Below are positions 6,811 to 38,881 of a stretch of 64,000 bases of DNA, in pieces; position 1 is the first letter of the stretch, and every line of letters starts with the position of its first letter. Position numbers and translations under genes: made by a program. The DNA lies in assembly GCA_041665385.1 (NCBI GenBank), contig JBAYIX010000002.1, positions 50,932-114,931 on the forward strand. The letters are read 5' to 3'. This DNA comes from Minisyncoccota bacterium (lineage in GTDB: Bacteria > Patescibacteriota > Minisyncoccia > Phycocordibacterales > PALSA-1337). Below the pieces are notes generated by a model. It made no database searches, was not told the DNA's origin, and worked only from the letters and a program-made list of their open reading frames with translations.

Positions 6811-6816
6811 AATAAC

Positions 6817-12226: not shown

Positions 12227-12246
12227 TAGTTCTTTGCAGATTCACA

Positions 12247-14184: not shown

Positions 14185-14223
14185 GTTGACGTAATTATAC
14201 TACTTCCCTATTTCAAAACCATG

Positions 14224-14253: not shown

Positions 14254-14265
14254 GGTGACAGAAGC

Positions 14266-14526
14266 ATGAAAACAACACGAATGCTCAGTCCCGAGGAAGC
14301 GGAGCAATTCTTCGCCCAATTGCGGAGAGTAGTTGAAAATGCTCCGAAGTCAGAACCCCGAGCCCCGTTTAGCCTTCCATCCAGCCACTACACATTCCAT
14401 AGGGCCGAGAAGCCCGTGCGTAAGTCGGCTCGAGTGGATCGCTCAGATGGAGACCAGATCGGCTGGATGACCGAATGGGAGGAAAGAGAGGAACAAAGAA
14501 ACACCAGATTCAAATTCAAAATGTAG
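14266..14526 (+). CDS. Hypothetical small protein (86 aa) driven by the consensus promoter
   Basis: Only substantial ORF between the promoter and the bidirectional terminator at 14546-14576. No recognisable domain. G+C-normal, unlike the flanking A+T-rich array. Confidence 0.35.
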   Translation: MKTTRMLSPEEAEQFFAQLRRVVENAPKSEPRAPFSLPSSHYTFHRAEKPVRKSARVDRSDGDQIGWMTEWEEREEQRNTRFKFKM

Positions 14527-14545
14527 GAATACCATGCAGATCCGT

Positions 14546-14576
14546 AAAAAGCGCCGAACAACAATCGGCGCTTTAT
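14546..14576. terminator. Bidirectional intrinsic terminator between the small ORF and histidine kinase 1
   Basis: AAAAA-GCGCCGA-ACAACAA-TCGGCGC-TTTAT. Confidence 0.6.
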
Positions 14577-16202: not shown

Positions 16203-16204
16203 AA

Positions 16205-17014: not shown

Positions 17015-17669
17015 ATATATGTCTTAGAATTTTCTCGGCAATTTTCTTTTTTCCAGTAGCTTTTTCAATAATATTCTGCTTATCAATAATATACGCTTCA
17101 TGATCAGTAAATTTTGAATCATAAATATTCGCTACAATTAAATCTGCGTTAGATTTCTGTAAACTATTAAAAGCAATGCTAGTTAATTTTTCAACAGTGA
17201 CACCAACCTCAAGTTTAAACTTAATTAAAAAAACATTTGGAGCATACTTTTTTATATCATCAACAATTTTTTTTGTAGGTATAAGCCTAAGTATTAGATT
17301 ATTTGTATTAGATTTTATCTTCCCTATATGTACTTTTTTTAGCTTAAAATCGGATACGGCCGCAGAATGTACAACAGCATCAAATTTCTGTGAGATTAAA
17401 GCATTTTTCATTAATAAATCGAGTTCATCAAAATATTTAAATCTAATGACATTAATATTAACTGGTAATTTCAAAGAGGATACATCCATAGAAGGACCTA
17501 ATAATAACGTGACGTTTGCGCCATGTTGAGCAGCAGCTTCTGCAATCGTTAATCCAATTTTACCCTTAAAGATGTTTGTTATGACACGAACAGTGTCTAT
17601 GGAAACCCATGTTGAACCGGCACTTACCAAAATATTAAATCCCGTGAGCGATTTATTTTTTAAAATCAT
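17001..17669 (-). CDS. coaB: Phosphopantothenate--cysteine ligase (CoaB domain as a separate gene)
   Basis: DFP C-terminal domain family. Overlaps coaC by ATGA. Confidence 0.7.
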   Translation of the reverse strand: MILKNKSLTGFNILVSAGSTWVSIDTVRVITNIFKGKIGLTIAEAAAQHGANVTLLLGPSMDVSSLKLPVNINVIRFKYFDELDLLMKNALISQKFDAVVHSAAVSDFKLKKVHIGKIKSNTNNLILRLIPTKKIVDDIKKYAPNVFLIKFKLEVGVTVEKLTSIAFNSLQKSNADLIVANIYDSKFTDHEAYIIDKQNIIEKATGKKKIAEKILRHIYEKT

Positions 17670-18220
17670 AATAATATTTTCTCTATTTCTTTTATAATTT
17701 CATCATTATCGGCAATTTTTCCAATTCCATTATCTCGACAAGCTAACACTCCCGATCTTGGTTCAACAATTAAAAACTTTGTTGTGTCTTTTAATGTTTT
17801 TAAATTTTTTTGGAACATTGGATTATTCCACATGTTTGAATTCATTGCTGGGCAAAGAATTATTTTTATATCGGGTAATGACGCACTGATTATTGTTGTT
17901 AAAAGATTATCTGCTAGACCATTTGCAATCTTACCAATTGTATTTGCGGTAGCAGGAGCAATTACAATAATATCGGGCCAATGAGAAATTGAGATATGTT
18001 CAATAAAAAAAGGATCTAATGGATTCCAAAGATCATCATATACCGGCTGATTAGTTAACGATTGGAAAGTCAGAGGGGTAATAAATTTTTTTGCCGACTC
18101 AGTCATAACGACCCTAACCACCGTTTTTTTTGAAATTAGCATATTTACAAGAGAACAAACCTTGTAGGCTGCAATCCCACCAGTAATACCAACTAGAATT
18201 TTTTTGCCATCCATATGCAT
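17666..18220 (-). CDS. coaC: Phosphopantothenoylcysteine decarboxylase (flavoprotein, CoaC)
   Basis: Flavoprotein fold, GITGGIAAYK and PAMNxxM motifs. Confidence 0.75.
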   Translation of the reverse strand: MHMDGKKILVGITGGIAAYKVCSLVNMLISKKTVVRVVMTESAKKFITPLTFQSLTNQPVYDDLWNPLDPFFIEHISISHWPDIIVIAPATANTIGKIANGLADNLLTTIISASLPDIKIILCPAMNSNMWNNPMFQKNLKTLKDTTKFLIVEPRSGVLACRDNGIGKIADNDEIIKEIEKILL

Positions 18221-18252
18221 TAAAAAATTATACCATATTTACTGCTATAATA

Positions 18253-19926
18253 ATGACTATGGATATAAGCATTCCTACCATATTGATATGGATCACGGCA
18301 ATAATAATTATTAGTCTGGATTTGGTTATTGTAATAGGTAGCCGTAATTTATCATCGCGAGTTTTTGCTGCATTAAGTTTTACAACTGCAATTTGGGTAA
18401 TCTCATCAGGCTTTTTCATATCAACACTATCATCTAATGTTTCAAATATTTTAATCCGCTTTCAGTACGTGCTTGGAATATCAATAGCCTTAGGCTTTTA
18501 TTTATTTTCATTAATTTATCCTAATGACAAAAAGATAACTAAAAAACACATATATGTACCCATATTAATCATCATCATTTTTGCTTACTTATTTTTATTT
18601 TCAAATCACTTAATTATTTATACATTTTACATTGGAGGAATAAATAAGTGGGGATGGAATTTTGGGAATTTTCAGTGGCTATTTGAATTTGCTTTCTGTG
18701 GACTATGGACGTTTGCTCTTCTAAATCTTTATCGTACATACAAGAACTCCTCTGGACCACTACGCATAAATCTTAAAAATATGTTTTGGGCACTATTTTT
18801 AGGCATAATTCCGCCAACCATCGTAAATATTTTATTACCGGCAATTGGTTACTTTCGACTTAACTGGTTCGGTCCAGTAACAAGCGCAATCTGGATACTC
18901 ATCATTGCTTATTCGATTATTCGCTACCGCCAGATGAGCGTACGGATCGTAGTAACAGAGGCATTGGCTGTTGCTATGACGGCGATATTTTTCATAAACA
19001 TTTTCATTGATTTTGCACCGAACATTTACATTCGCATTGTAACCTTTACCGCTTTTATTATACTCGCATATTTCCTGATACGCGGTGCCCTCCTCGAATC
19101 CCGCCAAAAGGAACAACTCGCAGACTTGAATCAGAACCTAGAAGCAAAAGTTGCCGAGCAGACGGCGGAGATCCGTCGCGCGTATGAAGTGGAAAAGAAG
19201 GCTCGAGTCGATCTGGAAAAACTGAATGACAGCAAAAACCAGTTCATCATGATCACCCAGCATCATTTGCGGACGCCGGTGACGAGCATCAGCTGGCAAC
19301 TGGAGTCCATGATATCGGGCGAATACGGCACACTCTCACCGGAGCTCCACACCGCCGTTCTCGAGACCGAAGAATCCACCAAGCGTCTGACGCACATCAT
19401 CGATGATTTTCTAGACATAGCCGCGATGAAAGCTGGCAGCAATATTCTGAACTTTACCGAAAGGAGCCTCCTGTCCGCTATGCAAGAAGTACTGCACGAC
19501 CTCCGCACAGACATTGCGAGGAAGCACATAAGTGTCACCTATCCCGAAACAAATGATGACTGGCCGAAGCTCCATGTCGACTACGAGAAGATGCGCGACA
19601 TCCTCCTCATCGTCATCGAAAATGCCGTGCGCTACAACTATGAGGCTGGCAGTATCACGATCACGACTCGTACACATTCGCACAAGTTTGAAATCTTTAT
19701 AAAAAACACCGGCATAGGCATCACTCCCGAAGAATCGGAAAAGATAGGCTCGACCCTGTTCTACCGCGGAATGGAAGCCAGGAAACAAAATGCTATCGGC
19801 ATGGGAGTCGGTCTGTCTGTGAGCAAAGCCATCATTCGTGGACATCAAGGCAGTTTTGATATCGAGTCGAAAGGCCCGGGCATGGGTGCGACTGTGACCA
19901 TCACTCTACCACTAAAGCAAAACTAA
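18253..19926 (+). CDS. Sensor histidine kinase 2 with N-terminal 7TM sensor domain
   Basis: H-box HHLRTPVTSI and N, G1, G2 boxes. The N-terminal ~280 codons are A+T-rich and polytopic; the C-terminal kinase half is G+C-normal. Confidence 0.85.
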   Translation: MTMDISIPTILIWITAIIIISLDLVIVIGSRNLSSRVFAALSFTTAIWVISSGFFISTLSSNVSNILIRFQYVLGISIALGFYLFSLIYPNDKKITKKHIYVPILIIIIFAYLFLFSNHLIIYTFYIGGINKWGWNFGNFQWLFEFAFCGLWTFALLNLYRTYKNSSGPLRINLKNMFWALFLGIIPPTIVNILLPAIGYFRLNWFGPVTSAIWILIIAYSIIRYRQMSVRIVVTEALAVAMTAIFFINIFIDFAPNIYIRIVTFTAFIILAYFLIRGALLESRQKEQLADLNQNLEAKVAEQTAEIRRAYEVEKKARVDLEKLNDSKNQFIMITQHHLRTPVTSISWQLESMISGEYGTLSPELHTAVLETEESTKRLTHIIDDFLDIAAMKAGSNILNFTERSLLSAMQEVLHDLRTDIARKHISVTYPETNDDWPKLHVDYEKMRDILLIVIENAVRYNYEAGSITITTRTHSHKFEIFIKNTGIGITPEESEKIGSTLFYRGMEARKQNAIGMGVGLSVSKAIIRGHQGSFDIESKGPGMGATVTITLPLKQN

Positions 19927-24171: not shown

Positions 24172-24687
24172 ATGGAGAAGTCTTATAATACTATTCGCGA
24201 ACTATTGCGAACCGATCAAGAAGATATTTGTCTGTTCAAGGCTGGCAAAATCTCTGCTGATGAACACACGGATCGAAATCTATTCACTTCAAATAGCTTT
24301 ATGGACCAGATGCGAAAAGACGGATTTTGCTACAAGAATTCAGCTTCACAGGATATCTACAAAGCTTTTGTTACCCTATCGTTGCATGTCAGCCTTAGTA
24401 ATATGAAATGGATATTTGACACGTATATTGAGAAAACCACACCCTATGAGGTTGCTCCTGAAGACAAGGCGTTATTTATTGATAAAATTCTGATACTTTC
24501 AGGAAAACCTCAAATATACGGTACACAATATAAAATTGATTCGAACAAAAAGATATCATTTCTTCCTATTGAGGATGAAGTCAATCTAGATAAGAGAAGA
24601 AGTGAAGCTGGTCTTAATCATATAGAGACGTACATGAAAATAATTGGGGATCATGAGTCACTAGCTTCGAAGCACTTTATACTATAA
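24172..24687 (+). CDS. Hypothetical protein, family A (A1). Paralogue of 41109-41621.
   Basis: Shared blocks DQEDICLFKAGKISADE / GTQYKIDSNKKISFLPIEDEVNLDKRRSEAGL with A2. A+T-rich. Confidence 0.6.
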   Translation: MEKSYNTIRELLRTDQEDICLFKAGKISADEHTDRNLFTSNSFMDQMRKDGFCYKNSASQDIYKAFVTLSLHVSLSNMKWIFDTYIEKTTPYEVAPEDKALFIDKILILSGKPQIYGTQYKIDSNKKISFLPIEDEVNLDKRRSEAGLNHIETYMKIIGDHESLASKHFIL

Positions 24688-24697
24688 TAAAAAAGTA

Positions 24698-25546
24698 TTA
24701 ATGAAGCAGAATCGGTTCCCTAAACTCCTTTAGAAGCGCCGGATCTTTCATGATTTGGATTCCATGATTATTATCAAATTGTCGCTTTTTTATTATATCT
24801 GATTCAATTTCTTTACATACATGTATCATTTGTCCTACAAAAAGTCTAAAGTCATTTCCCTCAGCTCTATTTTTCTCGAATAACTTTAGAAAATAATCGA
24901 AAGCGGTGATTGTTTTATCATCCATTTTGAAATATATCTCCAGAACATTATAATTGCCCACTATTTCCTTTTTAAAGATGTCGCAAAAATCGTCCTGATA
25001 GACAATTATCGGCGCGATGAGTTCTTTTATGAAATATAGTAACTCATGACTCAGTTCTTCATTTATATCTTTTAAAATATCATAGAGCATTATGTGAGAT
25101 ATCTCATGGATAGACACGGCTAAAACTCGTGGAAATGCGGTTACTCCTTTTAGACATTTATATATGGAAAAATAAAAGATATTATCCTTGAATGGAGATA
25201 GAGGAAATATTGTGGGTACTAAAATATAACCTTGATTTTCAGATTGCCATTCATAATTCATTAGACCTGCCAATATATCCAGTGCCTTCTCACCCTTAGC
25301 TTCAACTTCGTGTTTAACAAAGTTTACTGCGGTATCGATATTCTCCTTGTTTCCTTTTCTCAAGTCCTCAATAAACTTTTTGACCACATCACTTTCACTT
25401 TTAGGCTCTACATCGATAACTGTTTTTAGTTCTGGTAAAAAGGAAAAGATAATATTTCTATGCTGGGGATATTCTTTGTTATTCAGAAAGTTCAAAAATA
25501 TATTAATCTCCGATTTTTCATTGATATCTAAAAGTATTTTATGCAT
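24698..25546 (-). CDS. Hypothetical protein with HExxH motif (putative zinc metallopeptidase)
   Basis: VSIHEISHIML. A+T-rich. No further family assignment is possible. Confidence 0.4.
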   Translation of the reverse strand: MHKILLDINEKSEINIFLNFLNNKEYPQHRNIIFSFLPELKTVIDVEPKSESDVVKKFIEDLRKGNKENIDTAVNFVKHEVEAKGEKALDILAGLMNYEWQSENQGYILVPTIFPLSPFKDNIFYFSIYKCLKGVTAFPRVLAVSIHEISHIMLYDILKDINEELSHELLYFIKELIAPIIVYQDDFCDIFKKEIVGNYNVLEIYFKMDDKTITAFDYFLKLFEKNRAEGNDFRLFVGQMIHVCKEIESDIIKKRQFDNNHGIQIMKDPALLKEFREPILLH

Positions 25547-25626
25547 TTGGATAATATATCATATTTAACACGTTAAAAAACAGCTAGGACTTTCATCCCA
25601 GCTGTGTGTAAATAACCTTGGAACAA

Positions 25627-26931
25627 TTACGGCGTCAGGCGATTAGGCCCGCGATAGAGGTAGGTCACTTCCCGGACATTTTTTCGGTCTAGGAGAACCA
25701 TGAGAAGCCTCGTAAGTCCCACACCGAATCCTCCGTGCGACGGACAACCGTAGCGAAAGAAGTTGATGTAGTGCGCGAGAGGAGCAAGAGCCAATCCCTT
25801 TTCTCGCGCCTGCTGTTCAAGCGTTTCGACACGATGTTCACGCTGTGCACCAGTCGTCACTTCAAGCCCCTTCCATAAAAGGTCGAAGCTCTTGGTGATG
25901 CTGGGATTGCCGTCATGACGCATGTGGTAGAACGGTCGCACATCGATCGGGTAGTCGATCACAAAAACAAACTCGTGACCAAATTCCTTCTTGATGTATT
26001 CCGCCAAACCCCTTTCGCCGGGCGGATCAAGGTCAGTGATTTGCTCCATGGTATGGCCCTGCTTTGCGAGAATCTCTCGCGCATTTGCCAAGGTAACCCT
26101 TGGAAATGGGAGTTGAGGAATCACTACGTCAACTCCGAAAACGTCCTTGATAGCCTTACCGTATTTCTCTGACACTCGTTTGACCACGTGATGCAACCAA
26201 GTCTCCTCGATATGCATCAGATCTTCATGGGAATCAACCCACGATATCTCCATGTCAACCGAGGTAATCTCGGTGTCATGTCGTGATGTGAACGATGGAT
26301 TGGCACGGAATACAGGCGCAATCTCAAAGATCCGATCAAACCCTGCCGCCATCGCCATTTGCTTGTAGAACTGAGGCGATTGGGCCAGAGTCGCTTTTTG
26401 CCCGAAGTACTCAAGCTGAAACAGTTCTGCACCGGATTCGCTCGCCGTTGCCATAAGCTTCGGCGAATGGACCTCGATGAAGCCGTTGTCAGCCCAGAAC
26501 TCCCTCATCGCCTGCTCCACGGTCGTTTGGACCTGGAATATCAGGAGATTTTCGGGTTGCCTCAAGCTAAGCATCCGCCAGTCCATCTGCAGATCGAGCG
26601 ATGACTCCGGCGTAATCGGTAATGGCGCAATGGCGATGCTTGAAACATCAACCGACTCCGCCACAATCTCAACTCCACCAAGCTTCACGCCCTTGTTTTC
26701 GACCACGCGGCCTACAACAGTGACTGCTGATTCAGCAGTAAGCGAAGATATGGTCTTTTTCAACCCATCCTCGTCACCACCTTTTTCATGACAAATCTGA
26801 ACCTGTCCCGTCTGATCCCTGAGGATCACGAACTGCATTTTCTTTTGGTCGCGAATGACTTGTGAAAAGCCCGCAACTTTTACTCGTTGGCCGATTAAAG
26901 TCGGTATGTATTGAGTCAATGTGCGATTCAT
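25627..26931 (-). CDS. aspS: Aspartyl-tRNA synthetase, archaeal/eukaryal-type class IIb
   Basis: N-terminal OB fold and class II motifs (FRANPS.., QSPQFYKQ, GGFGVGLTRL). The Asp versus Asn assignment is tentative. Confidence 0.7.
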   Translation of the reverse strand: MNRTLTQYIPTLIGQRVKVAGFSQVIRDQKKMQFVILRDQTGQVQICHEKGGDEDGLKKTISSLTAESAVTVVGRVVENKGVKLGGVEIVAESVDVSSIAIAPLPITPESSLDLQMDWRMLSLRQPENLLIFQVQTTVEQAMREFWADNGFIEVHSPKLMATASESGAELFQLEYFGQKATLAQSPQFYKQMAMAAGFDRIFEIAPVFRANPSFTSRHDTEITSVDMEISWVDSHEDLMHIEETWLHHVVKRVSEKYGKAIKDVFGVDVVIPQLPFPRVTLANAREILAKQGHTMEQITDLDPPGERGLAEYIKKEFGHEFVFVIDYPIDVRPFYHMRHDGNPSITKSFDLLWKGLEVTTGAQREHRVETLEQQAREKGLALAPLAHYINFFRYGCPSHGGFGVGLTRLLMVLLDRKNVREVTYLYRGPNRLTP

Positions 26932-27105
26932 TTGCCACCTCCTTTCAATTGGTTGTGGTCATTTTGTTCATAATAACTACTATAAACAGATCAACTCCAT
27001 TTATAGTTCTTGCTACAGAGTAAGAAACAATATTAATATTGTCAAGGCTTTTTTGAAAATCTACATTTGAATTATGCAATCCAAATGAAAAGAACTTAAC
27101 ATAAT

Positions 27106-27684
27106 TTATCGATAGTATTTTGACCTATTTACAACTAAACTACCGTTTACGATCTCAACATCAAAAAAAGAGAATAATTTATCATTTATCTGATCGATAA
27201 ATTCCGTATTAGAATAATTGAGTTTGTTTGCCACGACATAGATTCCCACAACTTCCACTCCCAATTTTCTAAACAGATTTTCCGCAGCTCTTAATGTTCC
27301 TCCAGTTGATAAAATACAGTCTACAATGACTATCCTCTTTATTTTTGTTAGATCAAATGAAAAAAATAGCTCTCTTTTCTGATATCCTGTCTCTTGAGTG
27401 AACTGAAATAAATCAGTCATCTTGTAATTAAATGTCCTAGCTGCAACAATAGGCTTTCCTGATAATAATGCTAATGGTAAAGCCGTAAATATTCCGTCAG
27501 TCTCAACAGTAAATATCAAATCAATATCCTTAGGCATCTTAGAATACATGGCCTCAGCTAGATATCTCACTTCCTCAATATCAATTGGAATTATACCTTT
27601 ATATGGATAGACGAAATAATCATAACCATTTTCGGTCTTATATACTGGTGTTTTTTCAAATTTTCTCTTGATTGCTTCAAACAT
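27106..27684 (-). CDS. Type I phosphoribosyltransferase (PRTase)
   Basis: PRPP-binding motif VIVDCILSTGGTL. A+T-rich island gene. Confidence 0.65.
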   Translation of the reverse strand: MFEAIKRKFEKTPVYKTENGYDYFVYPYKGIIPIDIEEVRYLAEAMYSKMPKDIDLIFTVETDGIFTALPLALLSGKPIVAARTFNYKMTDLFQFTQETGYQKRELFFSFDLTKIKRIVIVDCILSTGGTLRAAENLFRKLGVEVVGIYVVANKLNYSNTEFIDQINDKLFSFFDVEIVNGSLVVNRSKYYR

Positions 27685-27691
27685 ATTGGTG

Positions 27692-29770
27692 CTAACTCAG
27701 GTAAAATTTATATATGTCTTTTGGTAAAGACACATGCTTTTCACAATAACCCAAAACCTCCCTAGCCAATATTACAAGAAGTGCTAATCGTTTTCCAAAA
27801 CTTTTATCATCCCGAGGTATTTGTAATATGGTTTTAATCTGATGATCAAATCCGTCAGGTTGCTTAGGTAAACCGGAAAAGAACTTAGTATAATAATTTT
27901 TTTCCTCAGGATAGTTAATTTTGTTGAGATCGAAAATCATATTTTTTATATATCTTACTGCTCTATCAATTTCTAAATTTGCCACCAAAACTTCTTTTCT
28001 TGAATATTGTTTATAAATTTCTGAAAACATTTTAAAACCGTGATACTCGTTATAAACCATGCAAATTTCTCCTAACTCAATAATATTCTCAACTAATCTT
28101 CTTTTTTGCTCTGAAATCGAAATCTTCGTTTTCTTTTTTATTATGTGACTAATTGTTTCAGTACATTGTATCAACTTCACATATGAATAAGCGTGTTTCA
28201 TTTTAGGTGACCATAAGCTGTCTCTAAACGAATTCAGAGACATATATCGACCCGAAAACATAACTCCATTATATTTATACATGCCGGTTTTAAGCCCATA
28301 TTGTTTTTTTATTTTCTCAATATCATCACAATCAAATACACAAGTGAAATCAATATCTGACAGGTCATCAGCTGTACCCCTACCAACACCACCTCGAATA
28401 ATCAGTCCCTGAAAACCTGGGATTATACTGAAAAAGTCTTCAACATATTTGTTTACAATATCCTCATATTCCACAACTGTCATATTATCTAATACATCAT
28501 GTGTTTCAAATTTTTGGTCTAAAATGACTTCGTTTTCATTTTTCATAAGAGGAAGATCAACATTGCTAATATAATTGTCTAGAGTGAAAAGTATTTTTTG
28601 ATATTTACTACTGAACCTGATCACATCTTCCTTTATAAGGCTCTTCTCTTTATAACCAATCAATACTTCCGAAATATATTTCGCTATTTGTTTCATTTCA
28701 TCTTCTTTCATGCCCAGTCTCGTCACTTCCGCAGTTCCCAATCTTAGTCCAACTTTTTGTATCGCAGGTATCCGAATAGGGTTTGTATTGATATTACATT
28801 CAGCAAGCATTTCAAACGCTCTCTGTGGATCAAGCGCGCCCGTGTCTATCCAAACCTGGTGCGTTTCCGTAACACCTTTATCGAGCGTGGGAATTGCAAC
28901 CCCATTCATAGCTAAGCTATTCCCCAATTCCTTAGCGTTTTTTACAACCTGCATAGCATATTCATTCCCAAATTCTTCCATTTCTAATACACTCATATAC
29001 AAAGCCAAAAGACTTCCTGTGTGAAGGCTAGATATGTAATCATTTGATATAGAATCAATTTTATTTATCAGATCTTGGTTATTAGTCAAGATAATTCCTT
29101 TTTGGGAACCAAAGAATGTCTTATGGGTACTGCCGCTTAAAATATCCGCTCCGTTTTCTATTGGATTCGGAAACGACTTACCGGCGATTAAACCCAAGAC
29201 ATGCGAACCATCATATACGATCGGAGCATGATATTTTTCCGCAAGTTTTTTTAATCCATCAAGAGGAGAATAAAAACTAATGATTGTATTATCCAAATAT
29301 ATTAATCGCGGTTTTCTAATCTCGAACGTTTTCTCTATTTCTTCCAAATCGAATCGATAATTTATATTACTAAATGGTAAATAGTTAATATTCAGATGAT
29401 ACATACGACATATTTTTTCGGTCGACGCATGGCCTCCATCAAGTGGTTTCAGAGTGTAAATGTTATCATTTTTATCTGTTAGACTGCTGATAATCAAACT
29501 CATACAACTCATCCCTGAAAGCGGTGATATGTTGACATATTTTACGTTAAACATTTTGCAAAGATGTTGCTTCAGTTTTTCTTTAATTTCAAAAAGTTCT
29601 TTATTGTTTGGAAAATCATTGAGAATATACCTATTGGAAAGCAACGATGCCTGCAATTGGCTAACCTTATCGCTAATTATGTTTTCTGAGGCAATAAGGT
29701 TTATACATCTGCTTTTCCGTTCCTCCTGTATTGCAACAGTTCTAATTAGATTATCTAAATCGGATTCCAT
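27692..29770 (-). CDS. Fusion protein: N-terminal serine hydroxymethyltransferase-like PLP enzyme plus C-terminal Pol-beta-superfamily nucleotidyltransferase
   Basis: SHMT blocks LIASENI, GGH, DGSHVLGLIAG, STHKTFFGSQKG (PLP-Lys) and IRLGTAEVTRLGM. The NTase motif GGVGRGTADDLSDIDF lies at about aa 460-480. 692 aa. Confidence 0.65.
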   Translation of the reverse strand: MESDLDNLIRTVAIQEERKSRCINLIASENIISDKVSQLQASLLSNRYILNDFPNNKELFEIKEKLKQHLCKMFNVKYVNISPLSGMSCMSLIISSLTDKNDNIYTLKPLDGGHASTEKICRMYHLNINYLPFSNINYRFDLEEIEKTFEIRKPRLIYLDNTIISFYSPLDGLKKLAEKYHAPIVYDGSHVLGLIAGKSFPNPIENGADILSGSTHKTFFGSQKGIILTNNQDLINKIDSISNDYISSLHTGSLLALYMSVLEMEEFGNEYAMQVVKNAKELGNSLAMNGVAIPTLDKGVTETHQVWIDTGALDPQRAFEMLAECNINTNPIRIPAIQKVGLRLGTAEVTRLGMKEDEMKQIAKYISEVLIGYKEKSLIKEDVIRFSSKYQKILFTLDNYISNVDLPLMKNENEVILDQKFETHDVLDNMTVVEYEDIVNKYVEDFFSIIPGFQGLIIRGGVGRGTADDLSDIDFTCVFDCDDIEKIKKQYGLKTGMYKYNGVMFSGRYMSLNSFRDSLWSPKMKHAYSYVKLIQCTETISHIIKKKTKISISEQKRRLVENIIELGEICMVYNEYHGFKMFSEIYKQYSRKEVLVANLEIDRAVRYIKNMIFDLNKINYPEEKNYYTKFFSGLPKQPDGFDHQIKTILQIPRDDKSFGKRLALLVILAREVLGYCEKHVSLPKDIYKFYLS

Positions 29771-29774
29771 GTAA

Positions 29775-30401
29775 TTATTTTTTCCTTAAATTAAAATTAT
29801 GCCCACGGCAATAATTCTTGGTCCATGTTACATAACATTTCCCTGCCTCTGATTCAATAATAAAGTATTTTTGTAATATCATCCTTAAATTATTTATCGA
29901 CTGATGGTGACACTCGAAACCTTTACTGTTTTTAAACCGTCCAAAATGCAGTGTTTTTATAAATCCAAAAATATATTGTTTCCAATTTTGTTTGAAATCG
30001 ATAATAAAGGTTTCCAGTAAAACAGATCCGTTGATTGAGAGACTTCTAGAAATCTTCCTAAAAAAAGCGTCCTGATCATTATCAGTGAGGATATATTCAA
30101 TAACCCCCATCAGTAGGATTAGATCGTATTTCTTATTCAGATTTAAACTTTTGAAATCAGAAACAAAGAGATTTGCATCTTGGCAATTTTTCTTGGCCTC
30201 TAATACATAACTTGGGGACATATCGAAACCTGTTAAATTTGTGAAACCTAAACTCTGTAAATAACTCAAAACTCTTCCATACCCACAACCAACATCAAGA
30301 ATCCTTATGTCTTTTGGAAAGGATGCTAGAAAACTTTTATCTGGCAAAGGTGTGGTAAATTTAACATCCTCACCATAGATCATGTCTGCCCAGATTGTCA
30401 T
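29775..30401 (-). CDS. Class I SAM-dependent methyltransferase
   Basis: Motif I ILDVGCGYGRV, post-I acidic residue and motif II region. Confidence 0.7.
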   Translation of the reverse strand: MTIWADMIYGEDVKFTTPLPDKSFLASFPKDIRILDVGCGYGRVLSYLQSLGFTNLTGFDMSPSYVLEAKKNCQDANLFVSDFKSLNLNKKYDLILLMGVIEYILTDNDQDAFFRKISRSLSINGSVLLETFIIDFKQNWKQYIFGFIKTLHFGRFKNSKGFECHHQSINNLRMILQKYFIIESEAGKCYVTWTKNYCRGHNFNLRKK

Positions 30402-30410
30402 TTGTTTGAT

Positions 30411-31148
30411 TCATTTATGATATAAATCTTTTAATGTCCCCACCGCAAAAGGAATGATCCTCATTAAACAGTTTCGTAAATCTGACTCGTAGGTTTCTCG
30501 ATTTGGGATGCCTTTAAAATCTTCTTTACTCTCCTCATCTGCTGGTAAATCAGTTGGAATATTTATTGCAGCTGCGGGTAATTTTCTGAACTGGCAAACT
30601 GATAAAATTGCCGCCGTTTCCATTTCAATAGAAATAACCCCCAACTGACATAATTGCTTAAGTAATACTGGATCTTCTCGCCATCTACCATCTGTTGTTA
30701 CTGTGATACCTTGCTGGTAATCAACACCTCCTTCAGTTAATCTTTTTATGAGGAGGGTATTCAGATTAGAGTCAGATACAATAGGATAGCCACATGGTAA
30801 GTAATGCTTCGAGGTACCTTCGCTACTAAAGCATGCTGTCGTAATAATTGGGCACCATAATTTTATTTCTTTCGATAATGCTCCACATGTCCCGATTCTA
30901 ATTATTGCCTTTGATCCATACACCCTTAATCTCTCAGTCATGCACGCGACCATACTTGAACCTTGGCCAGAAATAAAAGCGATGTCGATATCATCCACAA
31001 TTATATGTAACACATCATCCTGGTCATTTGGATAATAGATTCGTTCACTTTTAGGGAAAAGTGATTCAACGATTGAATACCATGAGGACTTCTCAAGAAT
31101 AATTCCAAAATTTGTTTCTCTTTTTACCTCTATTCCTTGTTTATACAT
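30411..31148 (-). CDS. PNP/UDP-phosphorylase family-1 nucleoside phosphorylase or nucleosidase
   Basis: SGQGSSMVACMTERL, IIRIGTCGAL and SIEMETAAIL blocks characteristic of the PNP_UDP_1 family. Confidence 0.65.
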   Translation of the reverse strand: MYKQGIEVKRETNFGIILEKSSWYSIVESLFPKSERIYYPNDQDDVLHIIVDDIDIAFISGQGSSMVACMTERLRVYGSKAIIRIGTCGALSKEIKLWCPIITTACFSSEGTSKHYLPCGYPIVSDSNLNTLLIKRLTEGGVDYQQGITVTTDGRWREDPVLLKQLCQLGVISIEMETAAILSVCQFRKLPAAAINIPTDLPADEESKEDFKGIPNRETYESDLRNCLMRIIPFAVGTLKDLYHK

Positions 31149-31184
31149 GATATTTTATGATGCGCTTATCTTAATGGGTAATCT

Positions 31185-32528
31185 CTATTCTGACAATAGG
31201 TTATCGATCCTATTAATATCCCTCGGGAAAAGAGTGGCTTCCTTGATATTTTCTAGACCAAGAAGCTTTGCCGTAATGCGCTCCAACCCGAGTCCCAGAC
31301 CTCCGTGTGGAGGCATGCCATATTTGAAAGCTTGAAGATAATATTTGAACTTTTCAGGATCAAGCTTCTTTTCCTTCATGGAACTAACAAGGTCATCGTA
31401 GTTATGGATGCGTTGCGCGCCAGTAGTGATTTCTACTCCACGGAAGAGCAAGTCAAAACCTTTAGTATATGTTGGATCTTTTTCATCTCTATAAGTGTAG
31501 AATGGGCGCTTGGCTGTCGGAAAATTAGTTACGAAAATAAAGTCGGAATTAAAATTCTTCTCGGCATATTTACAGAGCCATCTTTCATGTTCAGGTTCAA
31601 GATCCGGCTCATTTGTGCAATCTTTACAGGTATCTTTTGTAATAAGTTCCTGAGCTTCGCGTAACGTCAATTTTGGAATTTCTTTCGGAACAGCTGGTAT
31701 AGTGGCACCGAGCAAGGCAAAATCGTCAACACAGGAAACACGAAGAACATTTTCAAGATATTGCAAAAATTGATTTTCGGCATACATGACATCATGATGG
31801 TCTTTAATATAACCCATTTCCATATCTAAACTGGTATATTCATTGAGGTGACGCGTTGTACTATGTTTCTCCGCACGATATACATTACCAACAGAAAAAA
31901 CACGTTCAAATACGCCGACCATAATCTGTTTATATAATTGGGGACTTTGAGCCAGATGTGCGACATGTTTGAAATATGTAACATCAAAAGAGTTCGCCCC
32001 GCCCTCGGCATCATCACCAATTAATTTCGGCGCTTGAAATTCTGTAAAACCCTCTTTTGTAAAGAAGTCTCTGAAAGCTTTGGCAATAGCTGCTTGAACC
32101 TTGAAAACAGCCGCATGTTTTTGACTTCGAAGAGTGAGCGGGAGGTAATCGAGATATGTATCGATATTAATTTCAGAATCTTTTTCAAACGGAAGTTCCT
32201 TGGCTATTCCAATAACCTTGATACGTTTAATCTCAAGTTCGATATCCCCGTTCATTTTTCCGACTTGAATGTTCTTTTGGGGACGTTTGTTTACGATGCC
32301 AATAATGTCTACGACCCATTCAGAACGTATTTCCTTCGAAGCCTCAAGGGCTTCTGAATTATTAGGAAGTACCACCCCTTGTATATTGCCTGTCCGATCT
32401 CGAAACTCGAAAAATACCATTTTACCCTGATCACGACGTACATCAACATATCCTGAAATGCTGATTTCTTTACCGACAAATCCTTTTACATCTTTTATGT
32501 ATGTTCTTTGCATTGTACTTGCGACCAA
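31185..32528 (-). CDS. asnS: Asparaginyl-tRNA synthetase (class IIb), paralogue of the upstream AspRS-like gene
   Basis: RAEKHSTTRHLNEYTSLDMEM resembles the AsnRS motif 2 region. QSPQLYKQ and GGLGLGLERI class II motifs. Confidence 0.6.
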   Translation of the reverse strand: MVASTMQRTYIKDVKGFVGKEISISGYVDVRRDQGKMVFFEFRDRTGNIQGVVLPNNSEALEASKEIRSEWVVDIIGIVNKRPQKNIQVGKMNGDIELEIKRIKVIGIAKELPFEKDSEINIDTYLDYLPLTLRSQKHAAVFKVQAAIAKAFRDFFTKEGFTEFQAPKLIGDDAEGGANSFDVTYFKHVAHLAQSPQLYKQIMVGVFERVFSVGNVYRAEKHSTTRHLNEYTSLDMEMGYIKDHHDVMYAENQFLQYLENVLRVSCVDDFALLGATIPAVPKEIPKLTLREAQELITKDTCKDCTNEPDLEPEHERWLCKYAEKNFNSDFIFVTNFPTAKRPFYTYRDEKDPTYTKGFDLLFRGVEITTGAQRIHNYDDLVSSMKEKKLDPEKFKYYLQAFKYGMPPHGGLGLGLERITAKLLGLENIKEATLFPRDINRIDNLLSE

Positions 32529-32867
32529 AGAAATGTCCTACTTAATCGTTATAAATGAAAACACTTTTTTGGTCAGAATAAATTAATTTCTAATAAATCC
32601 GTAGGGGTGATTTCGCCGCGGTTCTACCCTTTTTATTCATTTCGACATATCGGAGCAGAACCGGAAGATTATACTCACCAACTAAATACCGGCCTTCATT
32701 CTTCACCTCACCTGTTTCAACTGGATCGAAGATACTCAAAGAATGTAACATACTTTGATAATAATACACGAAATACCAATAATTTAGAAACGGATAACCT
32801 AGATTTACTCGAGAGAAGTCCGCAAACTATTTTATTGTCTGGTTTTTAAATCATTTACTCTTATAAT

Positions 32868-33362
32868 TTATATCTGCATTACTCGAACCAAATCACACGC
32901 CCTACTCATTATTCTGTCACCTACTTCACCCCAATCGAAGTATTTTTTGTAATCAGAGGCATCGATCAATTTTATTTCCGTAATATCACCGTCCGGGTCC
33001 TTTATAAAAGGTCCGTACGGCTCAACAATACAAACCGAGCGTGTTTGTCTGAATATGCGGTCAGATTCATATATGTCCTGATATCCTATAAATTTCTGAT
33101 TCAGAACCTTCATATTTGTTTCTTCCCTTACTTCACGGACTACAGCCTGCTCATAACTTTCCCCGAGTTCGATACCGCCACCTGGTGGAGCCCAGTAGCC
33201 TTTGTCATGAGCGTATACTATAACGAGCTTACCGCGACAAAAGCAGATTGCGTGAACGGTTAGAAGAATTTTACCCTTAACATCTCTTAATGGATCATCT
33301 TCACGATAATTAAGGTCGAGTTTTTGACCGGAACGATTGGTATAAGAAGATTTTATTTCCAC
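32868..33362 (-). CDS. NUDIX hydrolase
   Basis: Nudix box GGGIELGESYEQAVVREVREETN. Confidence 0.8.
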   Translation of the reverse strand: MEIKSSYTNRSGQKLDLNYREDDPLRDVKGKILLTVHAICFCRGKLVIVYAHDKGYWAPPGGGIELGESYEQAVVREVREETNMKVLNQKFIGYQDIYESDRIFRQTRSVCIVEPYGPFIKDPDGDITEIKLIDASDYKKYFDWGEVGDRIMSRACDLVRVMQI

Positions 33363-33583
33363 ATTGGTAATTATATCCGATTTGGACTACCTGTGCATAA
33401 CCTGTGTATAACTTCCCTCTTTACAAAACCAATGGAATATGCTATACCTAGGCTAGATTTGAAGTGATCGCTCGTTGAAAACACGAGACAGAGCTTCGGA
33501 TAAACAATTTGTTTAACCTGTTTTGTGCATTGGTCACTTGGCGGTGATCTTCTTGCCCAAAACGCAACTGAAAGGGTTGTGAA

Positions 33584-34531
33584 ATGAAAACGACTCGTAG
33601 TTTGTTTGCGACCATTCTGGTCGCGCTCACTGCCCTTGTTACGCAAGGGCAAGAATTGGTCGATGGGTTACCCGCGTGGTTACCTATCGGAAGTGATGAG
33701 ATTCTCATCAATTGGGCTGTCACCAACAGTCCCTCTTGGGTCGGTGCAGGTATCACCTATACCAACACGGCCGGTGAACCCGTTAAGTTCATACCTTATA
33801 TGGTTCCACTCAAAACAGAATCGCTAGATGATTTTCGAGAGTGGGCTTCCTACGCAGGAAACTCCATCATCGATGGTCTACGTGGAGCGACAGGTAGAAG
33901 TCAGATCTCGACCAATTCTACCATTCGCTTCTATGCCAGCCTTGCACATCGGCTGATCGATGGAACTCCAGGTGGAACTCCTTACGAGTTCATCTCTATT
34001 TATACTAACATCGGAAAGATAAAGGACATAACTCCTGACACTTTCCGTAACATGCCACTCAACAACAGGTATGCGAGAATTTACATCCCCGGTCTAAACG
34101 AGATCGAGATCGATGTGAAGGATAAGCACCATATGTTGTGGAAGAACGGTGTCGAAACATACACCTATAACGGCCTAGCCAACCAGGCAGACGGTTTCAT
34201 ACCTCCCAAGGAGATGATCATCACAAACGTGCTGACGCTCCGAACATGGTACTCCCATTACCCTGTCGTACGTATAACTCTCGGCACAACCAATGGCGTG
34301 AGGAGGACATACACGGGGTTTGGCGACCCACTCGATATCAAGATGGAGTACACCAAGTCCGAGATCATCTTGCATACGGCTCGCGGCTCGTACACTGAAA
34401 TAGAATGGTCCGAAGATCTGGTAAACTGGAACCCATACGCGGAGTTTCAGTCGACCGACACGGACTACACGTTCAGAGTACCAGTCGATCCATATCTGTC
34501 TCGTAGATTCATTCGAGGAAAGTCGCATTAG
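33584..34531 (+). CDS. Secreted hypothetical protein
   Basis: Signal peptide MKTTRSLFATILVALTALVTQG. No recognisable domain. Confidence 0.6.
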   Translation: MKTTRSLFATILVALTALVTQGQELVDGLPAWLPIGSDEILINWAVTNSPSWVGAGITYTNTAGEPVKFIPYMVPLKTESLDDFREWASYAGNSIIDGLRGATGRSQISTNSTIRFYASLAHRLIDGTPGGTPYEFISIYTNIGKIKDITPDTFRNMPLNNRYARIYIPGLNEIEIDVKDKHHMLWKNGVETYTYNGLANQADGFIPPKEMIITNVLTLRTWYSHYPVVRITLGTTNGVRRTYTGFGDPLDIKMEYTKSEIILHTARGSYTEIEWSEDLVNWNPYAEFQSTDTDYTFRVPVDPYLSRRFIRGKSH

Positions 34532-36622: not shown

Positions 36623-36735
36623 GCAAGTAAAAGAGATGGCCTGCACTTTCAGGCAAATAGCAGAGCTACCTCGAAAACAGCCGACCACAATATTCTTCTA
36701 TTTGCCTGAAAGTGCAGGCCATCTCTTTTACTTGC
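36623..36735. repeat. Giant-hairpin element D: perfect 38-bp inverted repeat with the core in opposite orientation. The right arm overlaps the valS stop codon.
   Basis: Arms are 36623-36660 and 36698-36735. The loop reverse complement shares TTCGAGGTAGCTC and TTGTG blocks with element E. Confidence 0.8.
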
Positions 36736-38881
36736 CCGGCCACTTTTCCACAATGAGTAGTCTTTTGCCTGGAATAAGCATACATGACCATATCTCTTCC
36801 GTCACAAAAGGAATAAATGGGTGCAAAGCTTTCAAAAGTTTAGCTAAAATAAGCAATAAGAGTTGTTTCTTGGAATTTTTCTCATCTTCAGTACCCTCTT
36901 TCAGAGTTTTCTTGCTCTCTTCTAGGATCACATCGGCAAATCGGTGCCAGGCATAATGATACAGTTTCTCTCCTGCCATATAAAAGCGAAAATTTTCCAT
37001 ATCCGTAGTCACATCGGTAAGGAGACGGCTCAATTCTTCTTCGAGCTTGCGGTCATCTGCTGTCCAGCTGTCGAAATCCTCCACAAAAGCCGTATTTTCT
37101 GTTTCGGTAAAGACAAATCGGGAAATATTCCATAGCTTGTTCACAAACTTTTTATAAGCGGTAATCTTGTCTTCGGAAAGAGCGAGTGATGTGCCCGGAG
37201 TATTGCCGACCACGAGACCCATGCGGAAAGCGTCGGTTCCGAACTTGGCGGTGAGATCCAGAGGATTGATGACATTACCCTTACTCTTGCTCATCTTTTG
37301 CCCCTTGCCATCGAGGACGAGTCCGTGGAGGTAAACAGTCGCAAATGGCACCTCGCCTGTGACATACAAACCGAGCATTATCATACGTGACACCCAGAAA
37401 AAGATGATCTCGCCCGCCGTTTCCATGACATCAGTGGAATAATAATTCTTGAAATCTGGACTATCCGGAAAACCAAGTGAAGCAAAAGGCCATTGAGACG
37501 AAGAAAACCAGGTATCGAATGTATCGTTATCTTTCCTGACTTCCCCGCCGCACTTTGCACATTTTGTGATCTTGTTGTCCAGATCTACGTAACCTTCGCC
37601 GCATTTTTCGCAGATCTTGGCGGGAATGGGTATGCCCCACACGATCTGACGAGAAATATTCCAGTCCATAATGTTTCCCAACCAATGTTCAGTGATCTTC
37701 TCATAATGTTCGGGTATGTATACAACCTCCTTATTTTTTATTTTCTCCAATGCCTTCTCAGCCAAAGGTTTCATCTTTACGAACCACTGACTCTTCACCT
37801 GCGGTTCTATGGTCGTACCACATTTGTAGCAAGTACGGACCACATGTTTGTAGTTTTCATCTATTTTTTCTACGAGTCCCTTTACTCGAAGTTTCTCGAC
37901 TATGAGCGCTCGGACCTTACTGATATGCTGGCCTGCGAACTCTCCGGCAATGGGCAGGAGCTTTCCTTTTTCATCTATTATTTGTTCCTTGTCCAAACCA
38001 TGTCTCTCGGCAATGTCAAAGTCCACCGGATCGTGCCAAGGTGTGATAGTCATGACACCAGTGCCAAACTCCATATCTATGGCCTCATCTTTGATAACGG
38101 TTGCAGTTATGGGGCCATTGATCCATTCCAGGTCTATCTTTTGGCCGTCTTTGTACTGTGCATATCTCTTATCGGCAGGATGCATGACAACGTATTTGTC
38201 ACCGAACTTTGTTTCGGGACGAGAAGTACCAATGGTGAAAGGGCCGTACTTGAGATAGTAGAATTTTTCAGTGCGTTCCTCGTCCTTTATTTCCAGATCA
38301 GAAAATGAAGTCTGATGCTTGGGGCACCAGCTGACTATACGCTTTCCCCTGTATAGGAGACCGTCGGCGGAGAGTTTTGCAAATGTATTGTAAACAGTCC
38401 GCACAATAGCGGGATCGAGAGTGAACTTTTCCCGGGACCAATCACAGGAAGCACCCATCTTCCTCACTTGAGACTTGATATTTGCAGAATTTGTAAGAGT
38501 AAAGTCCAGAATTTCCTTGTAAAGGTCAGCAGGCGGTATTTCGAAACGTGTGCGACCTTCTTTTTCCAGTTTCTTTTCGTATACGACTTGTGTTTCAAAG
38601 CCAGCGTGGTCGAGACCGGGTAACCAGAGTGTCCTCTTGCCACGCATACGCTGGTAGCGGGTGATGATATCTTCGATAGTCATGACGAGACCGTGGCCGG
38701 CATGGAGAGAGCCGTTGGCATTGGTGGGAGGCATGAGCATACAAAATGTCTCTGCATCGGGAGCAGTGACGCCCACCTTCACACACTGGTCCGGGTCAAA
38801 AAAACCACTCTTTTCCCAGAGCGAGTAGATCTTGTCCTCGGTAGACGCGGGATCGTAGGGTTTCAGGAATTTTCCATCCAT
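36728..38881 (-). CDS. valS: Valyl-tRNA synthetase (short form)
   Basis: HAGH (HIGH) and KMSKS motifs, a ValRS-like editing domain and a zinc-knuckle CxxC pair. 717 aa. Confidence 0.8.
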   Translation of the reverse strand: MDGKFLKPYDPASTEDKIYSLWEKSGFFDPDQCVKVGVTAPDAETFCMLMPPTNANGSLHAGHGLVMTIEDIITRYQRMRGKRTLWLPGLDHAGFETQVVYEKKLEKEGRTRFEIPPADLYKEILDFTLTNSANIKSQVRKMGASCDWSREKFTLDPAIVRTVYNTFAKLSADGLLYRGKRIVSWCPKHQTSFSDLEIKDEERTEKFYYLKYGPFTIGTSRPETKFGDKYVVMHPADKRYAQYKDGQKIDLEWINGPITATVIKDEAIDMEFGTGVMTITPWHDPVDFDIAERHGLDKEQIIDEKGKLLPIAGEFAGQHISKVRALIVEKLRVKGLVEKIDENYKHVVRTCYKCGTTIEPQVKSQWFVKMKPLAEKALEKIKNKEVVYIPEHYEKITEHWLGNIMDWNISRQIVWGIPIPAKICEKCGEGYVDLDNKITKCAKCGGEVRKDNDTFDTWFSSSQWPFASLGFPDSPDFKNYYSTDVMETAGEIIFFWVSRMIMLGLYVTGEVPFATVYLHGLVLDGKGQKMSKSKGNVINPLDLTAKFGTDAFRMGLVVGNTPGTSLALSEDKITAYKKFVNKLWNISRFVFTETENTAFVEDFDSWTADDRKLEEELSRLLTDVTTDMENFRFYMAGEKLYHYAWHRFADVILEESKKTLKEGTEDEKNSKKQLLLLILAKLLKALHPFIPFVTEEIWSCMLIPGKRLLIVEKWPGK

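Follow-up and report, generated by a model that had tools for sequence, protein, structure and literature searches.

What do genes for nucleoside and amino acid chemistry make when they lie packed between two aspartyl-tRNA synthetase (AspRS) genes? This question is raised by a 64,000-nt stretch of DNA, here called the window, from contig JBAYIX010000002.1 of a Minisyncoccota bacterium (GCA_041665385.1, positions 50,932-114,931 of the forward strand). An original prediction had described an island of four genes encoding a phosphoribosyltransferase (PRTase), a 692-aa fusion of a serine hydroxymethyltransferase (SHMT)-like pyridoxal phosphate (PLP) enzyme to a nucleotidyltransferase, a methyltransferase dependent on S-adenosylmethionine (SAM), and a protein of the purine nucleoside phosphorylase (PNP) family. 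We found these four co-directional open reading frames (ORFs) on the minus strand, coordinate for coordinate, and as tightly packed as had been described, with intergenic gaps of 7, 4 and 9 bp. Our comparisons support a conserved module with a nucleoside or nucleotide as its substrate and the undescribed fusion at its centre. The gene set is rare and moves horizontally, and its linkage to AspRS genes suggests a nucleoside-type compound aimed at AspRS. Tentatively, we propose that the cassette encodes a compact pathway whose product is an antimetabolite: a purine nucleoside or nucleotide, linked to aspartate, that mimics the aminoacyl-adenylate formed by AspRS, aspartyl-adenylate.

The fusion protein and its partner enzymes

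The fusion gene (27692..29770, minus strand) joins an SHMT-like PLP domain (28595..29770; residues 1-392) to an ANT/KNTase-like part made up of a Pol-beta-type nucleotidyltransferase and a HEPN-like helical domain (27695..28477; residues about 432-692). A search of 5.8 billion proteins returned about 27 full-length protein clusters with this architecture, which share 44-93% identity. The ORF is continuous in clusters whose members come from separate assemblies, each half is conserved and has invariant residues, and the junction has no stop codon; we conclude that the fusion is a genuine single gene and not an artefact of assembly or reading frame. Neither the fusion nor an AspRS-linked cassette of this type was found described in literature searches or family libraries, and the family appears to be undescribed. 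The conservation of a PLP enzyme fused to a nucleotidyltransferase over such a range of identity suggests that the two halves carry out coupled steps on one substrate.

The SHMT-like half matches PF00464 with 130.5 bits (cut-off 27) and falls below the NCBIfam cut-off for SHMT (NF000586, 240 against 335). The predicted STHKT motif is present within GSTHKTF and holds the PLP lysine, Lys217 (codon 29120-29122), which is invariant in 25 fusion sequences. Also kept are the SENxxS motif, GGH, D-x-S-H, the T-H-K around Lys217 and the PLP-contacting Asp and His, as is Arg343, the carboxylate-binding arginine of SHMTs, which is invariant among the fusions. The original prediction had called the folate/glycine loop degenerate, and comparison with 89 archaeal-type SHMTs bore this out. 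In all 25 fusions a Tyr found in 96% of these SHMTs is replaced by Phe53, a Gly found in 100% is replaced by Asn55, and an Arg found in 94% is deleted. Two loops are also shorter in the fusions than in archaeal-type SHMTs.

The nearest solved relative of this half is the Methanocaldococcus jannaschii SHMT (4bhd, 206 bits), followed at a distance by the transaldolase ObiH (7k34, 113 bits) and bacterial SHMTs (about 110 bits). It shares with the M. jannaschii enzyme the fold, the PLP motifs and Arg343, and the fusion adds about 300 C-terminal residues. It falls outside the known transaldolase clade, scoring 233.5 against a cut-off of 650 with the fluorothreonine transaldolase model TIGR04506. 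Judged by its sequence, the domain derives from archaeal-type SHMTs and not from known transaldolases. It may be an aldolase or transaldolase that needs no folate and whose substrate is a free amino acid.

The second half carries a Pol-beta motif (G-G/S ... D-x-D) followed by the helical HEPN-like domain, as in O-nucleotidyltransferases of the ANT(4')/Lnu type. Its active-site motif, GGVGRGTADDLSDIDF, is present as predicted (28346-28393, minus strand; residues 460-475). The closest folds are ANT(4') and LinB, both antibiotic O-nucleotidyltransferases, and the similarity is distant. The NTP_transf_2 score is 17.2 bits (cut-off 21), a profile search against the PDB recovered ANT(4')-IIb with E = 0.0097, aligned over the motif region only, and the domain is just 11-16% identical to the ANT(4') kanamycin and Lnu-LinB lincosamide nucleotidyltransferases. 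Unlike these enzymes it forms one protein with a PLP enzyme, and its family is separate and very small. When 1.84 billion representative proteins were searched with a profile, no more than 122 relatives came up, most of them stand-alone proteins of about 260 aa. By analogy with its closest folds, the putative activity is transfer of a nucleoside monophosphate (NMP) to the hydroxyl of a small molecule.

Some distant relatives (P0441, P0444, P0446, P0457) are themselves domain fusions, to PPDK_N plus PEP-utilizer (942 aa), a GNAT (438 aa), a class I methyltransferase (463 aa) and a HAD-like phosphatase (413 aa). With such modifier domains attached, the relatives look like an uncharacterised family of modular small-molecule nucleotidyltransferases. 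The nucleotidyltransferase part of P0446 is 27% identical to that of the fusion and its methyltransferase part is 29% identical to the cassette methyltransferase; P0446 is an independent hint that these two activities work together.

The PNP-like gene (30411..31148, minus strand) encodes an N-ribosyl hydrolase or phosphorylase of the PNP/UDP_1 superfamily, matching PF01048 with 94.4 bits (cut-off 25.1). It reaches no equivalog cut-off; the best NCBIfam model is AMP nucleosidase (72 bits, cut-off 264), and the PDB comparison places it at about the same distance from DeoD PNP, AMP nucleosidase and uridine phosphorylase. This protein was analysed at the level of sequence alone. Aligned with Escherichia coli DeoD as the reference, it keeps the equivalents of R87, of the ribose-binding pair M180/E181 (IEMETAA) and of the catalytic D204 (T-D). 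Unlike DeoD-type enzymes, it lacks the equivalents of R24 and R43, two of the three phosphate-binding arginines. The enzyme is probably purine-specific.

The methyltransferase gene (29775..30401, minus strand) encodes a class I SAM-dependent enzyme of the small-molecule substrate class. It scores 55-59 bits with Methyltransf_23/25/11, and its weak relatives in the PDB are mostly small-molecule and amine N-methyltransferases. The PRTase gene (27106..27684, minus strand) encodes a type I purine phosphoribosyltransferase of the APRT/HGPRT-like kind, with 38 bits to PF00156 (cut-off 26), 96.6 bits to the APRT subfamily model (cut-off 146) and 94.8 bits to archaeal HPT (cut-off 200). Its best solved relative is 7f06, an adenine phosphopsicosyltransferase, which is a nucleoside-antibiotic enzyme. 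The domain assignments first proposed for the four proteins hold: Pribosyltran at 38 bits, SHMT at 130 bits with a weak NTP_transf_2, a class I methyltransferase, and PNP_UDP_1 at 94 bits.

Linkage of the core to AspRS genes

We compared gene neighbourhoods across 13 divergent fusion lineages. The genes for the PNP-like protein, the methyltransferase and the fusion occur together in all of them except the rearranged L024, in which no methyltransferase of this type adjoins the others; the PNP-like gene is present in every fusion lineage. Since the fusion is genuine and its neighbours are conserved with it, the module proposed in the original prediction withstands this comparison. The PRTase is the sole optional member among the four cassette genes. 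It is present in L003, L006, L007, L017 and L019, reduced to a pseudogene remnant in L005, and absent from L001, L002, L009, L011 and L015.

Of the 13 lineages, 10 have an AspRS gene no further than one gene away from the core. The linked synthetases are of three types (B-type, A-type and bacterial-type) and may precede or follow the core or be encoded on the opposite strand, and there are two copies in the window lineage, in L001 and in L024. If a cassette were placed at random in a genome of some 800 genes, we roughly estimate that it would come to lie beside an AspRS gene in about 1% of independent events. With A and B for the A-type and B-type AspRS, MT for the methyltransferase, FUS for the fusion and PRT for the PRTase, the order in the window, L005, L006, L013 and L014 is B-PNP-MT-FUS-(PRT)-A. 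It is B-PNP-MT-FUS-PRT in L007 and PNP-MT-FUS-PRT-A in L003 and L004. L024 has FUS-414aa-B-PNP-A with A on the opposite strand, and L001 has B'(opposite strand)...PNP-MT-FUS-B''. The order is B'-PNP-MT-FUS-GNAT in L015 and L016, B'-PNP-MT-FUS-ATP-grasp in L011, L012 and L025, and FUS-PRT-bacterial-type AspRS in L017 and L019. The pair formed by an AspRS gene and the PNP-like gene, with a gap of 10-36 bp, recurs in L007, L011, L015, L024 and L025. AspRS genes are the most consistent partners of the cassette and the strongest clue to it, not passive flanks.

The unit in the window begins with the B-type AspRS gene (31185..32528, minus strand), 36 bp upstream of the PNP-like gene. It encodes an archaeal-type aspartate--tRNA(Asn) ligase resembling Thermus AspRS2. 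The A-type AspRS gene (25627..26931, minus strand), an ordinary Patescibacteria housekeeping AspRS, is the last gene of a conserved six-gene block. These flanks had been described as aspS and asnS; we assign both to AspRS, as the aspartate--tRNA(Asn) ligase equivalog NF003483 is passed by each (A-type 469.7 and B-type 509.4 bits, cut-off 353) and the AsnRS models stay below their cut-offs. Both proteins contain the class IIb core (PF00152) and the N-terminal OB anticodon-binding domain (PF01336), and the paralogues are 35% identical to each other. The best solved relative of the B-type is the Thermus thermophilus non-discriminating AspRS2 (1n9w, 374 bits) and that of the A-type is the AspRS of Thermococcus kodakarensis, of the archaeal discriminating type (3nel, 345 bits).

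We considered whether the A-type enzyme is a divergent, resistant copy, as it carries, in motifs 2 and 3, the changes FRAE to FRAN, RHLxE to RHDTE, GLER to GLTR and FPRD to YRGP. This was rejected because the same changes are found throughout Patescibacteria housekeeping AspRS: A-type homologues form more than 100 clusters across Patescibacteria, with 61-78% identity and the same motif variants. In this housekeeping enzyme (A-type; P0175, P0187, P0199, P0228) class II motif positions that are normally near-invariant have been replaced lineage-wide, the motif-2 Glu being lost, and the changes span Paceibacterota to Peribacteria and Andersenbacteria. An island-specific clade was likewise rejected for the B-type. 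It is a common Paceibacterota housekeeping gene whose own conserved context is usually dnaJ-trpS-aspS-scpA-scpB, with neither the cassette nor an A-type neighbour.

Several accessory genes adjoin the core. A RimL/RimJ-type GNAT gene lies right after the fusion in L015, an ATP-grasp ligase gene does so in L011 and L025, and a nucleobase deaminase gene precedes the core in L026. Such accessory genes are what we would expect around an amino-acid-nucleotide conjugate. Following the AspRS of L011 led to L023, where the same AspRS occurs in a sister cluster that has no fusion. This cluster (5349-18743 of ENA ERZ28653838 scaffold_10, probably Bacteroidales) encodes, in order, the AspRS, a MoaA/viperin-like radical SAM enzyme, an AMP-nucleosidase-like PNP that is 31% identical to the PNP-like protein of the window, a 183-aa protein, a B12-radical SAM enzyme, a second AspRS, a RimJ/L-like GNAT and Tpt1. 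The second AspRS is bacterial-type and has Cys in place of the motif-2 Arg (FCDED). Upstream of the cluster are a gene for a SPASM radical SAM maturase and small ORFs rich in Cys.

The most divergent fusion clade (L002, L009 and L026; 44-47% identity) has other neighbours. In L002 (3956-6552 and 13255-14757) we observed radical SAM maturases with ORFs of 38-43 aa, an octopine/opine-dehydrogenase-like gene and a metallophosphatase gene. An ADP-ribosylglycohydrolase gene occurs in L009 and a Tpt1 gene in L026.

Extent, mobility and decay of the cassette

The original prediction had also held that the four genes are far richer in A+T than the synthetase genes on either side and are inserted between them. 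The four cassette genes have a GC content of 32-37% and a GC content at third codon positions (GC3) of 27-31%, and most genes of the window have a GC3 of 47-57%. The claimed difference stands with respect to the downstream A-type AspRS, whose GC (51%) and GC3 (57.5%) are in the native range, but not with respect to the upstream B-type AspRS (GC3 34%), which is equally A+T-rich. Since this gene and a NUDIX hydrolase gene (GC3 36%) share the island composition, the A+T-rich block is wider than had been thought. Insertion between the two synthetases finds no support in the window, as the whole block of six genes from AspRS to AspRS is kept on other contigs. This block (25575-32766) has 92% DNA identity to L006, L013 and L014, where the flanks are unrelated, and the identity ends at 25575. 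A terminator-like hairpin (25580..25605, minus strand) just 3' of the A-type AspRS marks the end of both the transcription unit and the conserved block; it is the sole terminator-like site on the minus strand within 25400-33600.

Upstream of the A-type AspRS is a 174-bp spacer (26932-27105) that is also kept in L005. It contains a TTGACA hexamer and an inverted repeat (ACTATAAA...TTTATAGT), followed by a strong GGAGGTG ribosome-binding site, and it matches no Rfam family. Rfam searches at gathering and permissive thresholds found no T-box, no SAM, PRPP or purine riboswitch and no other match in or near the unit. There is no conserved small ORF inside the unit, and no tRNA gene or tRNA-guanine transglycosylase gene is linked to the cassette.

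The six-gene block is bordered by further A+T-rich genes (24172-25546 and 32868-33362), namely a DUF6624 gene, a 282-aa ORF with no family match and the NUDIX hydrolase gene. They share the low GC of the cassette and were rejected as members of it, being absent beside the cassette in all other loci. The suggestion that the NUDIX hydrolase belongs to the system therefore falls: no other locus has a counterpart adjoining the cassette. We also rejected the idea that the block is a composite transposon, as the sequences repeated on either side of it in L006 are paralogous genes for 7TM histidine kinases and not insertion sequences. Copies of the same 7TM-HisKA family occur in the window, where the paralogues at 14577-16202 and 18253-19926 flank a second, more A+T-rich block (16205-18220, GC3 18-23%) that encodes a transglutaminase-like protein and split CoaB (DFP) and CoaC (flavoprotein) genes.

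Comparison of loci points to horizontal movement. In the Bacteroidales locus L011 the flanking dipeptidase and phosphofructokinase genes fall in 90%-identity clusters of about 900 members, and the cassette AspRS falls in a cluster of 26. The GC3 of this island is 29-41% against 60-65% for its flanks. In gut Bacteroidales, the cassette with its archaeal-type AspRS is a strain-variable accessory island. L007 (4253-13019) presents a different setting, in which the four cassette genes and a 121-aa ORF fill the slot between a native aspS(B) and scpA. The trpS, aspS(B) and scpA genes of L007 are orthologous to those of the cassette-less L021 (58, 72 and 60% identity); the slot is empty in L020 and holds an unrelated 174-aa ORF in L021. 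The cassette is missing from the close relatives L020-L022. The simplest history is one in which the cassette originated or became established behind the native B-type aspS in one Paceibacterota lineage, and the two later moved together into genomes relying on a different AspRS.

In L001 and L024 the cassette has genes for a serine recombinase or transposase in its vicinity. The cassette is rare, with four loci among 185,579 GTDB species-representative genomes and seven in JGI metagenomes, and no relatives of it were found on viral contigs. Remnants occur as well. The PRTase remnant of L005 (10904-11257) lies in a 92% relative. In L015 the PNP-like gene is frameshifted (4810-5537), as is the fusion within its SHMT domain (6190-8275), and the fusion of L016 is affected likewise.

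Apart from the AspRS pair, the window carries three more aminoacyl-tRNA synthetase genes (5386-6648, 36728-38881 and 61690-62943). Altogether the 64 kb hold five: SerRS, a class I enzyme of the Ile/Leu/Val/Met type, a class IIa enzyme and the two AspRS. This exceeds what is expected for the about 50 to 60 genes of the window.

A proposed AspRS-directed antimetabolite and its alternatives

We propose that the product targets AspRS because the cassette almost always adjoins AspRS genes. In the pathway that we envisage, the PNP/AMP-nucleosidase-like enzyme would release a purine base, and the APRT-like PRTase, where present, would re-attach the base to a phosphosugar. The SHMT-like domain would make a beta-hydroxy-alpha-amino acid by folate-independent aldolase or transaldolase action, and the fused ANT(4')/LinB-like domain would transfer an NMP from a nucleoside triphosphate (NTP) onto a hydroxyl of that product. 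The result would be a nucleotide joined to an amino acid by a phosphodiester, which resembles an aminoacyl-adenylate but resists hydrolysis and which the methyltransferase may then tailor. The linked AspRS copies might supply Asp-AMP or Asp-tRNA, protect the translation of the producer, or do both.

Several observations weigh against this proposal. The chemistry is drawn from distant homology. No oxidase or dioxygenase that would give a nucleoside 5'-aldehyde is conserved with the core, and for that reason a route of the LipK/AbmH type through such an aldehyde was not adopted. In none of the loci is a gene for a transporter, exporter, nonribosomal peptide synthetase (NRPS) or precursor peptide conserved alongside the core. 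Neither the A-type nor the B-type AspRS resembles a specialised resistant variant, and against 117 ordinary Paceibacterota homologues the B-type of the window shows conservative changes only, with no unusual substitutions. The AspRS next to the cassette in L007 is the native housekeeping gene in its usual context, and part of the linkage could therefore be inherited hitch-hiking. The most divergent clade has no AspRS in the available DNA; its other neighbours hint that the three core genes may there serve another purpose or work with other partners. Finally, the cassette decays in some lineages, namely L005 (PRTase), L015 (PNP-like gene and fusion) and L016 (fusion).

Some of these observations would fit a cassette for resistance or detoxification, directed against an AspRS-targeting aminoacyl-nucleotide antibiotic of the microcin C kind made by other organisms. 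The spare AspRS would restore translation, and the drug would be inactivated by the ANT-like nucleotidyltransferase, the methyltransferase, the nucleosidase and, at some loci, a RimL-like acetyltransferase. We consider this unlikely. The folds closest to the C-terminal domain, ANT(4') and LinB, are indeed those of classical resistance enzymes, ordinary-looking AspRS copies fit target dosage better than a specialised biosynthetic role, and there is no exporter. RimL/MccE-type acetyltransferases detoxify processed microcin C and give immunity, and RimL/RimJ-type GNATs are encoded in L015 and L023. Resistance would, however, make the bond-forming enzymes superfluous, among them the PLP aldolase-type domain, the phosphoribosyltransferase and the ATP-grasp ligases. 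It also leaves three radical SAM enzymes in the sister locus L023, and a conserved fusion that suggests coupled steps on one substrate. If the AspRS instead delivers charged tRNA, the cassette could serve a process on tRNA(Asp/Asn), either tRNA modification or conversion of the amino acid on the tRNA, as done by the PLP enzymes SelA, SepSecS and SepCysS. The linked AspRS genes retain the anticodon-binding OB domain, a fold-type I PLP enzyme is joined to a nucleotidyltransferase of the Pol-beta superfamily, which includes the tRNA CCA-adding enzymes, genes for the RNA 2'-phosphotransferase Tpt1/KptA lie near the L023 and L026 loci, and no exporter would be needed. We nevertheless find such a process quite improbable, since the invariant R343, which in SHMTs binds a free alpha-carboxylate, argues for a free and not an esterified amino acid, and the nucleotidyltransferase resembles small-molecule ANT enzymes and not CCA-adding enzymes. 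The substrates of the PNP-like enzyme, the PRTase and the nucleobase deaminase are free bases or nucleosides, and the missing link to a tRNA gene or a tRNA-guanine transglycosylase points the same way.

Ordinary primary metabolism is a further alternative, with the fusion as the SHMT of the host amid purine-salvage genes (PNP, APRT) and the position next to aspS as inherited gene order that has no functional meaning. Patescibacteria rely on salvaged nucleosides, each of the two AspRS types is a widespread housekeeping gene among them, the L007 cassette sits behind a native aspS, and the SHMT domain retains its PLP-binding and substrate-carboxylate residues. This explanation is nonetheless very improbable in our judgement, as the cassette is very rare, absent from the close relatives L020-L022 and strain-variable in Bacteroidales. 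It also has a foreign composition, and the Tyr and Arg that are invariant in SHMTs are lost. The PRTase decays, as do the PNP-like gene and the fusion in one lineage, and three types of AspRS are linked in differing arrangements. An anti-phage or nucleotide-signalling role, which the original prediction had offered as an alternative, fares worst and strikes us as scarcely credible. In such a system the nucleotidyltransferase would make a signal, or the PNP-like enzyme would deplete ATP on infection; the PNP_UDP_1 superfamily does include ATP-cleaving defence effectors. The regions around the cassette are variable, with restriction-modification genes adjoining it in L003 and recombinase genes in L001 and L024, and a NUDIX gene is near it in the window. 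In PADLOC-DB v2, however, we found no match for the fusion or the PNP-like protein, a PRTase-ShosT match of 18 bits over the PRPP motif only, and generic matches for the methyltransferase. There are no relatives on viral contigs, the nucleotidyltransferase fold is ANT-like and not CD-NTase-like, and no sensor or effector gene is present. A defence role would also leave the AspRS linkage unexplained, and the NUDIX gene is not conserved with the cassette.

The proposed AspRS-directed antimetabolite has parallels among known nucleoside antibiotics. In the albomycin cluster of Streptomyces (abm), AbmH is a PLP transaldolase, AbmI an N-methyltransferase, AbmK a SerRS that supplies seryl-adenylate and immunity, and AbmF is aminoacyl-tRNA synthetase-like (PMC9032320). 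Like the pathway to the albomycin warhead SB-217452, the unit in the window has an SHMT-like domain and a methyltransferase, together with two AspRS genes. It differs in that the synthetase is AspRS and not SerRS, and the window lacks a siderophore or NRPS part as well as radical SAM thiosugar enzymes. The SHMT-like domain is archaeal-type and fused to an ANT-like nucleotidyltransferase, and the hosts are Patescibacteria and Bacteroidales, not actinomycetes. The ascamycin cluster has in AcmD an extra, canonical-looking AlaRS that supplies Ala-tRNA and self-resistance, next to the AlaRS-like AcmF (PMC12945691). In the nucleocidin pathway NucPNP is paired with the APRT NucV, and the two supply and re-attach adenine (PMC8694150). 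The window resembles both clusters in its PNP and APRT-like pair and its extra cognate synthetase. Unlike them, it has no sulfamate, halogenation or fluorination genes, and its PRTase is dispensable.

Microcin C offers a parallel at the level of the target. Its AspRS is inhibited by a stable aspartyl-adenylate mimic (PMC9239234). The cassette would share this target and the use of SAM for tailoring, and a GNAT similar to RimL/MccE is encoded in L015 and L023. Unlike microcin C, the cassette has no MccA-type precursor peptide and no ThiF/MccB-type adenylyltransferase among its ORFs, and in place of a succinimide intermediate the nucleotide would be attached onto a hydroxyl by a Pol-beta-type transferase. 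More generally, clusters for aminoacyl-tRNA synthetase inhibitors, of the albomycin, ascamycin and agrocin 84 type, have a copy of the target synthetase linked to them, as AspRS is here in 10 of the 13 lineages; unlike those clusters, the cassette loci conserve no dedicated exporter or 'Trojan horse' uptake moiety. By analogy, the cassette would work like the known inhibitor clusters that carry their target synthetase, and would differ from them in its enzymes (the fusion), its synthetase and its hosts. A bolder version, which we regard as doubtful, is that an AspRS-centred antimetabolite cassette family, not recognised before, moves between candidate-phyla-radiation bacteria and gut Bacteroidales. 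It would reach its aspartyl-adenylate mimic by a PLP aldolase-nucleotidyltransferase route unrelated to those of microcin C, albomycin and ascamycin, and the B-type AspRS would accompany it as a supplier of activated aspartate, as an enzyme naturally insensitive to the product, or as both.

Whatever the product, the fusion family is apparently undescribed, and its tight linkage to three types of AspRS is a concrete and testable puzzle. If the proposal is true, the cassette would be a new biosynthetic route to an aminoacyl-tRNA synthetase inhibitor, from ultra-small episymbiotic Patescibacteria and from Bacteroidales of the human and animal gut, groups that are nearly blank on the natural-product map. 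It would also bring a new enzyme logic, in which a PLP aldolase feeds into an ANT-type nucleotidyltransferase, and would give antibiotic discovery a new scaffold directed at AspRS. The linkage to the target synthetase could then be used for mining uncultured lineages. For the Patescibacteria themselves, the product would be a possible chemical weapon or control device against their hosts or competitors.

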